64,000 bases of DNA, from the NCBI GenBank assembly GCA_002499085.1, contig DAKD01000032.1, positions 1,315 through 65,314 of the forward strand, read 5' to 3'. The stretch's first letter is position 1, and the number at the start of each line of letters is the position of its first letter. The DNA comes from Methanomassiliicoccales archaeon UBA280 (lineage in GTDB: Archaea; Thermoplasmatota; Thermoplasmata; SG8-5). Below are positions 25,122 through 39,662 of the stretch, piece after piece. Both the position numbers and the translations under genes were made by a program. The notes under the pieces were generated by a model, which saw only the letters and a program-made list of their open reading frames with translations, searched no databases and was not told the origin of the DNA.

Positions 25122-26408
25122 TCACAATTCTTTGTTCACGTCATCCAGAAGCCGCTTCGCGCCTATCTCTTCGAAAAGGGCCTTCGCGTCAGCGAACATC
25201 TGTTTGGCCTTCTTCCTGTCGCCCTTGGCCTTGTACATCTTTCCCAAATCGAAAAGCAGCTGGCCCTTGTGATACTTGGATGAGAGGCCTTCGGTTATCT
25301 CCATGGCCTTTGCAAAGAGTTCCTCTGCCTTGGCCCAGTCCTTCTTCTTCGAATGTCCCATGGCCTGGAGCCTGATGGAGCCCTGTATGCCCATGGTGTC
25401 GTTCAGCGGCTCCAGCATCTTGAGGGCCTTATCGCCGCGGGTTATGGCCTCGTCCACCTCGTCAATGTTGAGAAGCGCCTCGCCCGAGTTGAACAGGCTC
25501 CAGCCTATGAACTGCTGGTTGTTGATCATCCTGGCGAATTCCTCGGATTTCTCGAAATGCGATATGGCCTTCTTCCATTCCTTCTGCTGCATGTAGGAAT
25601 CGCCGATGTTGTTGTAGACCCTGGAAAGCTGGCGGTGGTCCCTCACGCCCTCGAGCAGTGGTATGCTCCGGTCGAACCAGTCTATGGCCTTCACAAGGTC
25701 GCCCAGGTCGCTGTACACGAGCCCGAACTCGATCATGATCTGGCCAAGCAGTCCCTCGTCACCTGTTCTCTCTGCATTGGAATGGCCTTTCTCGAGCCAT
25801 TCCAGGGCGCGGCTGTAGTTGTTCCTGTGCCATTCGAGATGACCGAGCCACCTGGAGGCGTCCGCAATGCCCAGGGGATAATCGGCCGACTGCGATATGG
25901 AGAGGCCTTTGTTGAGGTACTCTATGGCTTCGTCCCACTTGTCATTTCTCTCGAATATCAGCCCTATGCCGATGTTGGCCTCGGCTTCCTTGAGCGGGTA
26001 GTCGGCCTTCTTCGCGTACCTGATGGCATTCCTGAAAGCCCTGTCGCCCTCGTCGAAATCACCTATGACCTGGCAGGCGGTGCCCAATGAAACATAGATG
26101 TCAGCGAAGCGCCTTGCCATGTTGGGGTCGCCTTCCTTGCCCTTGAGCGTGTCCAGCTCCATCTGGACCTTGAGCTTGCGAATCTGGTTGCCCACCTTCT
26201 GGGCTGTCTCGTCGCCCTTGGAGGGCCTGATGGCCCTGATGAGGGCCGGCGTGAGCCGGATAAGGTCGCTGACCTTTATCTCCTCGGGCCTGATGCTGAG
26301 CTCGGAGCACTGCGTGATGAAAACCGTCTGGCCAAACTCCGGCCCCAGCTCCGCATTGAGAATCCGCCTAATCTCGGATACGAGCTTGTAGCCAGGTTGT
26401 TCTATCAT
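25122..26408 (-). CDS. TPR repeat protein
   Basis: Eight or more TPR units (e.g. AEANIGIGLIFERNDKWDEAIEYLNKGLSI). Start trimmed to the Met at 26408. Confidence 0.8.
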   Translation of the reverse strand: MIEQPGYKLVSEIRRILNAELGPEFGQTVFITQCSELSIRPEEIKVSDLIRLTPALIRAIRPSKGDETAQKVGNQIRKLKVQMELDTLKGKEGDPNMARRFADIYVSLGTACQVIGDFDEGDRAFRNAIRYAKKADYPLKEAEANIGIGLIFERNDKWDEAIEYLNKGLSISQSADYPLGIADASRWLGHLEWHRNNYSRALEWLEKGHSNAERTGDEGLLGQIMIEFGLVYSDLGDLVKAIDWFDRSIPLLEGVRDHRQLSRVYNNIGDSYMQQKEWKKAISHFEKSEEFARMINNQQFIGWSLFNSGEALLNIDEVDEAITRGDKALKMLEPLNDTMGIQGSIRLQAMGHSKKKDWAKAEELFAKAMEITEGLSSKYHKGQLLFDLGKMYKAKGDRKKAKQMFADAKALFEEIGAKRLLDDVNKEL

Positions 26409-26497
26409 GCCGTCTTTCCCGGTACATAAATAACGGGGACTCTTAAAAAGGTATTGATACCGGGAACTTGTCAAGAATTCAGGGATATTGGGACAAG

Positions 26498-26687
26498 TTG
26501 CTAGGGTCTAGGGTCTGCGCCAATAATATGGGATAAAGGGTCTAGGGTCTAGGGGAGCTGGCTTGGTTTGGACAAGCCAGCAAATGCGATTTGGAGGCAC
26601 CCTATGACCCTATCGCTGAATCAGAGATTCGGCTCAGTCGCGACACTTTGTCGCTCCTAGCCCCTAGCCCCTAGACCCTATGACCCT
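26498..26687. repeat. MITE-like element built from TAGGGTC heptamers, copy A (copy B at 37567-37748)
   Basis: The 5' part has CTAGGGTCTAGGGTCT...AAAGGGTCTAGGGTCTAGGGGA. The 3' part has the complement CCTAGCCCCTAGCCCCTAGACCCTATGACCC. Internal hairpins are GCTGGCTTGG..CAAGCCAGC, GAATC-AGAG-ATTC and GTCGCGACA..TGTCGC. About 90% identical to copy B by eye. Confidence 0.85.
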
Positions 26688-26752
26688 GAACCAAAATATT
26701 CACCAAGAATTAGACAGACCCATACCAGCCCAAGTACGACGAATCGCGGCGC

Positions 26753-37176: not shown

Positions 37177-37476
37177 TCATGCCCCTAGGTCGCCGTCCAA
37201 CTGCCTTCTGGCGTCCTTAGACATGGCCAGCTCCTCCTCCCAATGCTCCAGCGTGTCGAGGGTCTCCTTGAGCTGTCTGAGGCAGTCTATGCAGACCCAC
37301 CTTTTTCCGACCATCTTGCCCGGAGTCTTCCGGTAGCAGATGGAGCCGCACATCCAGCAGGTGTTCATCTCCTTGGTGCGGTGCTCCGCGTAGGCCTCCA
37401 TCTTGCGGCCCTCGACTATTGACTCGATGACCATCCTGCGCCTGTCGGAATCCGGTTTTATCTCTGCTTTAGGCAT
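37177..37476 (-). CDS. Hypothetical zinc-ribbon protein
   Basis: CWMC...CIDC four-cysteine arrangement. ORF only. Confidence 0.55.
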   Translation of the reverse strand: MPKAEIKPDSDRRRMVIESIVEGRKMEAYAEHRTKEMNTCWMCGSICYRKTPGKMVGKRWVCIDCLRQLKETLDTLEHWEEELAMSKDARRQLDGDLGA

Positions 37477-37566
37477 TTACGTTCCCTATGTTTATGTGTA
37501 TAGGGTTGAGATATTTAGTGTTTTGGTGTTTGTGAGATTGTTATAATTTATTTGATATTGAGATTA

Positions 37567-37748
37567 TTGCTAGGGTCTAGGGTCTGCGTTTTCAAATTGG
37601 GATAAAGGGTCTAGGGTCTAGGGGAGCTGACTTGGTCTGGACAAGCCAGCAAATGCGATTTGGAAGCACCCTATGACCCTATCGCCGAATCGGAGATTCG
37701 GCTTAGTCGCGACACATGTGTCGCTCCTAGCCCCTAGACCCTAGATCC
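37567..37748. repeat. MITE-like TAGGGTC-heptamer element, copy B; its last heptamer provides the arcS stop codon
   Basis: Collinear with 26498-26687. The CTA at 37741-37743 (TAG on the minus strand) lies inside the terminal CCCTAGACCCTAG block. Confidence 0.85.
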
Positions 37749-39540: not shown

Positions 39541-39662
39541 TTTGACGGTCAGAGCGGTGGGGCCACACCCGGTCTCATTCCGAACCCGGAAGTTAAGCCC
39601 ACCTGCGTTCTGCGCAGTACTGTGGTGCGAGAGCCCACGGAAAACGCAGAACGCTGTCAGCC
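39541..39662 (+). rRNA. rrf: 5S ribosomal RNA (stand-alone, not linked to 16S/23S in this window)
   Basis: Conserved core GGTGGGGCCACACCCGGTCTCATTCCGAACCCGGAAGTTAAGCCCACCTGCG. The terminal helix pairs UGACGG (5') with CUGUCA (3'). End coordinates are +/- 3 nt. Confidence 0.9.

Follow-up and report, generated by a model that had tools for sequence, protein, structure and literature searches.

Results

Two copies of one repeat upstream of gene starts

The window analysed, that is, the whole 64,000-nt stretch of contig DAKD01000032.1 from Methanomassiliicoccales archaeon UBA280, carries two copies (A and B) of a repeat, each just upstream of a gene start, a position that had been noted in a preliminary description and that became the key feature of the family, which targets the upstream edge of predicted core promoters. 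Both sequences are present where they had been reported (26498-26687 and 37567-37748), in the same orientation and with 90% identity over the core, close to the ~90% claimed, and tandem TAGGGTC heptamers, complementary CCTAGMC heptamers and three hairpins were found in both. The bounds of ~185 bp had been drawn too narrowly: the unit is larger, and copy A extends from 26464 to 26721, with terminal inverted repeats (TIRs) of ~25 nt and flanking 8-bp target-site duplications (TSDs). No open reading frame of at least 60 aa was found within 26464-26721. The features at copy A are:

26440..26455, minus strand: predicted BRE/TATA-like core promoter of the TPR gene (gene strand AATACCTTTTTAAGAG; ATG at 26408), matching the flank-derived promoter profile at offset 0
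26456..26463, no strand: left TSD GATACCGG, 6/8 match to the right duplication
26464..26501, plus strand: L-type TIR and short spacer (GAACTTGTCAAGAATTCAGGGATATTG GGACAAGTTGC), common to the left end of all bounded copies
26502..26555, plus strand: G-rich arm, (TAGGGTC)2, a 21-nt spacer ending ATGGGATAAA, then GGGTCTAGGGTCTAGGGG; heptamers conserved across genera
26557..26581, plus strand: hairpin H1 (GCTGGCTTGG..CAAGCCAGC), outer 7 bp invariant, pairs 8 and 9 compensated between species
26600..26613, plus strand: inner C-rich heptamer arm (CCCTATGACCCTAT)
26614..26656, plus strand: nested H2/H3 hairpin cassette (GCTGAATCAGAGATTCGGC; GTCGCGACACTTTGTCGC), missing from the 184-236-bp forms
26657..26687, plus strand: outer C-rich heptamer arm, (CCTAGMC)n
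26688..26721, plus strand: R-type TIR (..ATATTCACCAAGAATTAGACAGACCC)
26722..26729, no strand: right TSD (ATACCAGC)

The 6/8 match between the two duplications is that of ATACCGGG with ATACCAGC, with a 1-nt boundary shift. A distance of 47 nt separates the L end from the ATG of the TPR gene, and the downstream gene next to the R end encodes a JAB-domain protein. Furthermore, the promoter block CTTAAAAAGGTATT at the empty site of copy A is kept in five of five sister species, and copy A sits exactly at the upstream edge of this block. Copy A represents an old and complete insertion at the TPR promoter. The suggestion that the unit can fold back on itself was borne out for copy A, whose single strand gave a predicted folding energy of -54.8 kcal/mol, compared with -31.5 ± 3.9 kcal/mol for shuffled sequences (z = -5.95).

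Copy B extends from 37534 to about 37748, with the following features:

37512..37525, minus strand: predicted BRE/TATA-like promoter of a 99-aa gene (gene strand CAAAACACTAAATA; ATG at 37476), at offset 0 after the left TSD, the register of the family
37526..37533, no strand: surviving left target-site copy (GTGTTTGT), its partner lost together with the right end
37534..37570, plus strand: decayed L-type TIR (GAGATTGTTATAATTTATTTGATATTGAGATTATTGC), alignment score 44/74
37571..37748, plus strand: core with G-rich arm, H1 (37626-37650), H2/H3 cassette (37683-37726) and truncated C-rich arm; R-type TIR missing
37741..37743, minus strand: TAG stop of a 571-aa TGT/DUF5591/PUA gene (domains from Pfam), inside the heptamer array

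The 571-aa protein ends ..RIRHRI* in this genome and ..RVRHKAH* or ..RIRHRVHSESK* in sister species, in which just ~60 nt separate its stop from the next ATG at the copy B site. The simplest reading is that one deletion took the R-type TIR, the duplication and the last TGT/PUA codons, and that the in-frame stop provided by the heptamers made this loss tolerable. Indeed, TAG occurs in all three frames, reading inward from the R end, in 18 of 23 copies, and an array of this kind can rescue a gene truncated by a deletion. Three independent metagenome assemblies share an identical copy B, one of them with SNPs in the flanking gene, and the insertion is therefore fixed. A stand-alone 5S rRNA gene (97 bits; window 39541-39662, plus strand) was also detected ~1.8 kb from copy B, with no adjoining 16S or 23S gene in the window.

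A dispersed family with terminal inverted repeats

The host assembly (G000) is an archaeal metagenome-assembled genome of 1.75 Mb in 37 contigs, 77% complete, with 54.7% G+C, an archaeal 16S fragment and ~90% coding sequence by a crude ORF call. The copy number of two that had been described holds for the window and not for the genome, in which a BLAST search gave ~48 matching loci and a stricter count, based on heptamer clusters, gave 43. One L and one R end are kept at 30 of the 43 loci, one locus lies at a contig end, and the other 12 are decayed or have lost ends. Elements are 166-309 bp long (typically ~250 bp), below the ~600 bp taken as the upper size of MITEs, and all copies are intergenic and non-coding. 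Runs of N were observed inside several copies (e.g., C29:17101-17272, C15:25236-25450, and C6:3408-3573), and these were left out of the identity calculations.

When copies were aligned together with their flanks, imperfect TIRs of ~25 nt and of two types were recognised, L (GAGCTTGTCAAGAATTCAGTGATATTG) and R (reverse-complemented, GAGTCTGTCAACTTCTTGGTGATTG), sharing the common core GAGnyTGTCAA....GTGAT; apparently TIR-less copies of this genome retain TIR remnants. The exact TIR pattern had 22 matches here and at most two (0-2) in any of the 21 other genomes of the order, and, judged by these matches, the TIR-bounded form is amplified only in this genome among the 22. Moreover, the closest copies are only 91% identical, denoting an old burst of transposition and no recent activity.

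Evidence for transposition

The TSDs that had been proposed as a check were found at the bounded copies: all eight bases match in 11/30, at least seven in 20/30 and at least six in 28/30, compared with 0/30 at six or more in an offset control, and the perfect cases show no extension to 9 bp. Perfect 8-bp TSDs were also identified elsewhere (GTCTACAT in genome G001 and AATACGCA in G007). In addition, the joined flanks of copy A and of copy B align contiguously in four to five sister species, and the base-level alignments reveal that the element is absent from them. Given the TIRs, the 8-bp TSDs, the many copies and the empty orthologous sites of sister species, the lead reading of the repeat as a non-autonomous MITE-like mobile element was upheld: the family consists of MITEs, non-autonomous DNA transposons with two distinct ends and empty sites in relatives.

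Heptamer arms, hairpins and nested cassettes

Short forms of 184-236 bp, five of them with perfect 8/8 TSDs, all lack H2/H3 and present the order TIR-L; 1-4 units of GGGTCTAGGGTC plus a ~22-nt spacer ending ATGGGATAAA; further heptamers; H1 (GCTGGCTTG..CAAGCCAGC); a spacer of two variants; 3-6 contiguous CCTAGMC heptamers; and TIR-R. The ~34-nt unit of the G-rich arm is repeated 1-4 times among family copies. Full-length forms contain an extra H2/H3 cassette of ~43-52 nt in the C-rich arm, between CCCTAT and CCTAG, and the 293-309-bp forms contain additional cassettes. Since the short forms without H2/H3 have perfect TSDs, these hairpins are dispensable for transposition. The same H2/H3 hairpins are shared by further dispersed repeats and by cassette arrays of the host genome, and were found in G004 and G006 as well; they probably represent a separate cassette nested into the C-rich arm, and the family would illustrate how repeat modules nest within one another. 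Two other groups of loci in the host assembly were recorded:

C2:26930, C4:48819, C5:97189, C7:21463, C12:26286, C16:64334, C22:66021, C37:10268: separate dispersed family of at least eight copies, built around the same H2 hairpin (..CATTTTGAGATTTCAAAATGGGTTTGCCGAATCnnnGATTCGGCATATAACTGCCCTATGGTAAACTTCCAGCCC..)
C5:31967, C16:64273, C16:85709: tandem hairpin-cassette arrays

A second genus (G012) has the same combination of TIRs, heptamers and H1 with different spacers, and the conservation of the heptamers with TIRs and H1 across two genera, while spacers diverge, suggests that the heptamers are functional. The arms are asymmetric, with spaced heptamer dimers on the left and contiguous heptamers on the right. 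No multi-site heptamer clusters were detected elsewhere in the host genome, and no heptamer array there bounds a long element. The inverted TAGGGTC arms would most likely be putative subterminal transposase-binding sites, and the iteron-like protein binding that had been suggested for them is possible only in the form of such transposase sites or of host-factor sites, both putative. A mini element of ~105 bp in G005 (L119, G005:C32:~2646-2757) has L- and R-type TIRs (GAGGCTGTCAAGTCTTTAGTGATAT / GAGGTTGTCAATATATTAGTGATTT) and lacks heptamers, H1 and a clear duplication; since this TIR-only form exists, the heptamers may not be essential.

H1 pairs were counted directly on the H1 sequences. The outer 7-bp stem is invariant, and the covariation check found the next two pairs compensated between species: T·A/G·C in the host genome (23 of 26 distinct H1 sequences), G·C/T·A in G002 (8/8) and T·A/T·A in G004, which amounts to only two or three events. 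The compensated hairpin changes described between A and B were not recovered, as the two copies differ only by loop, uncompensated or wobble stem changes, and compensation is confined to H1 between species. H1 would be a conserved internal feature. The alternative description as a structured sRNA gained no direct support, as Rfam gave no match at the gathering threshold or at E<=1, and a known RNA family was rejected. An internal promoter was likewise discarded, with a promoter-like motif in only 3/23 elements. Putative G-quadruplex motifs, of which the whole genome has 180, were detected in 19/23 right arms but in only 12/23 left arms, and since they are also missing from some cross-genus copies, they were rejected as a conserved property.

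Most heptamer cores of G002 (~14) lack TIRs. Among these, L035, L056, L058, and L067, together with the TIR-less L037 of G006, begin exactly at, or include, the TAG stop of the upstream gene. At L058, a duplicated gene 3' end (..LLGVMK* twice) is split by a hairpin-bearing insert of ~170 bp. Other G002 cores (L057, L061-L063, L065, and L066) often adjoin another conserved repeat, rich in AATCTAAAATC / TAGATTTTAGATT, an adjacency that suggests nests of several repeat families.

Insertion at the upstream edge of predicted core promoters

Copies of the host genome have no orientation bias with respect to genes. Pre-insertion sites were reconstructed in order to read the target motif, and directly outside one duplication lies (A/C/G)AAA, followed by two variable bases and a 7-bp A/T block (vAAA-NN-W7), with A at +2 in 18/23 and at +3 in 19/23 sites and 83-100% A/T at +6 to +12. 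By a simple rule for the BRE+TATA-like motif, it starts at offset 0 from the TSD in 22 of 30 copies (the other eight lack it at this offset), compared with 5.1% of 20,000 random intergenic points (binomial P = 1.4e-22). The motif faces the L end 12 times and the R end 11 times, so either end of the element can face the promoter. Since a symmetric DNA target consensus would not give such one-sidedness, the one-sided motif points to an external, one-sided landmark.

A weight matrix built from the flanks matches 21.3% of gene-upstream windows in sense orientation, 12.2% in antisense, 9.5% of windows downstream of genes and 2.8% of intragenic windows, and motif starts peak at -40 to -36 from start codons, where the BRE is expected for leaderless or short-leader mRNAs. 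This enrichment, together with a position that matches the expected place of the BRE, indicates that the flank motif is the general BRE+TATA signal of the organism. In archaeal core promoters, BRE is bound by TFB and TATA by TBP, the homologues of eukaryotic TFIIB and TBP. As predicted from motif, position and conservation, the element would sit at about -37 relative to transcription start. In ~16 of 22 cases, a gene start lies on the motif side, at a distance of 25-79 nt. Moreover, the same register was found in copies of G007, G002, G012, and G004, with no clear register in three of seven TIR-bearing copies of other species. Insertion is non-random, with the 8-bp duplication immediately next to the upstream border of the predicted BRE+TATA.

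The downstream genes encode UbiA prenyltransferase, dihydropteroate synthase, FKBP isomerase, NOG1 GTPase, RpiA, enoyl-CoA hydratase, AMP-ligase, and the TPR protein. They share no functional theme, and the idea of a regulon was rejected; such unrelated neighbours are as expected for a selfish element.

Search for a partner transposase

The earlier statement that no transposase is nearby was correct, and the DDE_Tnp_1 genes of the assembly are all on other contigs. An autonomous partner would be expected to have the termini GAGCTTGTCAA... and ...TTGACAGACTC with an 8-bp TSD, and the recommended search for a cognate transposase with the same termini found none in the host genome, 21 other genomes of the order, JGI metagenome contigs or IMG/VR. 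TIR pairs more than 450 bp apart were absent from the host genome and from the 22 genomes of the order; the TIR-L pattern gave just two chance matches inside a coding gene in the JGI metagenome scan; and the TIR-L and heptamer-unit patterns gave 0 matches in IMG/VR. A self-megablast of the host genome for collapsed IS copies retrieved only paralogous surface-protein genes, with C29:61132-62861, C33:30368-32097, and C13:18364-19824 being 84-89% identical parts (1.5-1.7 kb) of very large surface-protein-like genes that are not mobile.

Transposase families were further compared through Pfam scans (IS1595, IS6/IS240, rve, ISL3, IS256, and IS66) across the genus, family or order. The host genome has two DDE_Tnp_1 genes, both for SWIM-finger IS903-like transposases. 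The complete one belongs to a cargo transposon on C16 (C16:~71823-75644; 3.8 kb), with the 9-bp TSD GTTGATTGC and ends GGCGTTGCACYTAAAGTC. IS903-group elements have 9-bp TSDs and GGC.. termini, and the IS5 family/IS903 group was rejected on this basis, as the MITE has an 8-bp TSD and GAG.. termini, compared with 9 bp and GGCGTTGCAC in the C16 element. SWIM-DDE transposons of the host genome and nine relatives elsewhere were also discarded, sharing neither ends nor heptamers with the family.

In the ISBst12 group of IS66, the TSD is 8 bp and termini are GTAAG..; the TSD length fits, and the group was rejected since the copies in G011 and G017 end GGTAAGCC and GGCGTAAGAG and have no MITE TIR pattern. 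IS256 elements generate 8-9-bp TSDs, and the sole IS256 in genomes of the family (G005) has the TIR GGGAGTGTTCGAAATTCTGTGTCA, so it was rejected. The IS1595, IS6, and ISL3 families have 8-bp TSDs; in the Pfam scans, IS1595 was absent from the lineage, IS240/IS6 gave nothing above the cut-off, and ISL3 was rejected, represented by one broken fragment without the MITE TIR. IS3 elements, with an rve transposase, TG..CA ends and 3-4-bp TSDs, were rejected as well, the rve matches being OrfA/OrfB elements of IS3 type with TGGACTGACCCC ends. One rve gene beside a heptamer match in G007 was not accepted as a partner, belonging to an IS3-family element inserted into a core copy: at L114 (G007:C134), positions 1150-2500, this element (110-aa OrfA plus 298-aa rve OrfB, end TGGACTGACCCC) cuts the heptamer core just past H1.

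Discussion

Taken as a whole, the best explanation, which we consider quite probable, is a family of MITEs mobilised in trans and inserted at promoter edges. As far as the TSDs and TIRs indicate, a DDE-type transposase supplied in trans would have made 8-bp staggered cuts, possibly positioned by a one-sided landmark of the core promoter, either the BRE/TATA DNA or bound TBP/TFB, and by landing at the promoter edge the element would occupy a safe site without damage to the promoter. The partner transposase was not found in the 77%-complete assembly, and may be extinct in this organism.

Other explanations have to be weighed against this one. The elements could be host-functional modules (insulator, terminator, nucleoid or regulatory site, or structured small RNA), with transposition merely the means of spread. 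Conservation of heptamers and H1 stem in two genera with divergent spacers, the strong fold, a constant spacing from the downstream promoter, in the region where archaeal regulators bind, the fixed copy B, identical in independent samples, and the abundance of putative G-quadruplex motifs in the arms in relation to the whole genome would all suit such a role. Nevertheless, the downstream genes lack a functional theme, sister species have empty orthologous sites, decay or truncation affects many copies, heptamer copy number and G-quadruplex potential vary, and neither an Rfam match nor an internal promoter-like motif (beyond the 3/23 elements) was obtained, so we regard a host function as unlikely.

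Another proposal takes the heptamer-bounded core (arms plus H1) as the primary mobile unit, moved by site-specific or single-strand recombination at CTAG/TAG, with the TIR form as a secondary capture by an unrelated MITE. It draws on the TIR-less cores of G002, several of which start exactly at the TAG stop of a gene, on the hairpin cassettes that nest precisely between CCCTAT and CCTAG and are found in other families, and on the TIR-only mini form of G005. On the other hand, the apparently TIR-less copies of the host genome keep recognisable TIR remnants, the duplications flank the TIRs and not the heptamers, and TIR, heptamers and H1 stay associated in two genera, which makes this proposal improbable.

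Near-random intergenic insertion followed by purifying selection, in which only insertions that spare the BRE/TATA and its link to the gene survive, would be favoured by a compact genome, by tiny gaps such as that at the copy B site in relatives, and by old copies that gave selection time to act. Selection, however, would allow any position upstream of the BRE, yet 22/30 copies are exactly at offset 0, the far side of many elements offers tens to hundreds of free bases, and the register is the same in four other species. Selection alone is a poor explanation because the offset is exact despite free intergenic DNA on the far side, and we consider it very unlikely. Finally, segmental duplication of the local region as the origin of both window copies, suggested by nothing beyond the similarity of A and B, is refuted by unrelated flanks outside the element, by 43 dispersed loci instead of only two copies, and by the separate empty site of each window copy in relatives.

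Returning to MITE insertion at the promoter edge, a more specific and rather doubtful extension is that the transposase docks on TBP/TATA, TFB/BRE or their bend and integrates at the upstream border of the complex (~-37), with possible co-regulation through the shared arrays. If so, ~40 promoters would have gained identical heptamer arrays at a fixed upstream distance, the polarity of the array would be the same whichever end faces the promoter, and a single heptamer-binding protein could co-regulate otherwise unrelated genes. In the literature searched, no published promoter-edge targeting by archaeal IS elements or MITEs was found. Mobile DNA with safe landing guided by the transcription machinery has been worked out mainly for eukaryotic retroelements, and precise integration at promoter edges would add archaea to the short list of hosts in which mobile DNA reads the transcription machinery or its DNA signature. 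It would also imply an undescribed transposase specificity for the BRE/TATA region. Furthermore, the element edges would mark predicted core promoters at base resolution in an uncultured archaeon, whose compact genome tolerates ~40 insertions with zero in genes and all predicted promoters intact.

Comparison with known systems

Prokaryotic MITEs, such as Sulfolobus SM1-SM4 and the Correia elements of Neisseria, offer the closest frame for this family (PMC10969869; PMC11602168). Like them, the present elements are small, non-coding, TIR-bounded, TSD-flanked, multi-copy and intergenic, fold back, and would be mobilised in trans; they differ in that no partner IS was found, in their unlike L and R ends, long subterminal heptamer arrays and nested hairpin cassette, and in their fixed register against a BRE/TATA core promoter. 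The section on insertion-site preference in one of these sources contains no archaeal case of a fixed promoter register (PMC10969869).

Within the host genome, the C16 cargo transposon is also an archaeal DDE element and adjoins a TATA-like tract (GATAAATATAAATA), whereas its TSD is 9 bp, it lacks heptamers and carries genes, and its relatives elsewhere have no MITE-like ends. REP/BIME sequences and IS200/IS605-derived PATEs are likewise structured, intergenic and multi-copy. They have no TIRs and no TSD and are mobilised via subterminal hairpins, and assignment of the present element to them was rejected, since it has both TIRs and TSDs; the nested H2/H3 cassettes may nevertheless belong to something REP/BIME- or PATE-like.

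Multiple subterminal transposase-binding repeats are known in Tn7 (three spaced on the left, four contiguous on the right), Mu, IS21, and eukaryotic hAT/CACTA elements. As in Tn7-type ends, short repeats in inverted orientation lie inside each end of the present element, spaced on one arm and contiguous on the other. Tn7 and Mu differ by their 5-bp duplications and TG..CA tips, such transposase genes were not found in this study, and the heptamer sites proposed here are putative.

In eukaryotes, Ty3 integrates at Pol III start sites via TFIIIB (TBP plus Brf1), and TRE5-A of Dictyostelium inserts upstream of tRNA genes. These are retroelements with integrases, while the present element is an archaeal DNA transposon with an 8-bp TSD, and a protein landmark is only hypothesised for it, direct recognition of DNA being equally possible. 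If docking on the promoter complex were true, the family would be the archaeal DNA-transposon counterpart of Ty3 docking on TFIIIB. Both kinds of element lie at a fixed distance from a promoter of the type bound by TBP and TFIIB-like factors, a safe haven that spares coding DNA.
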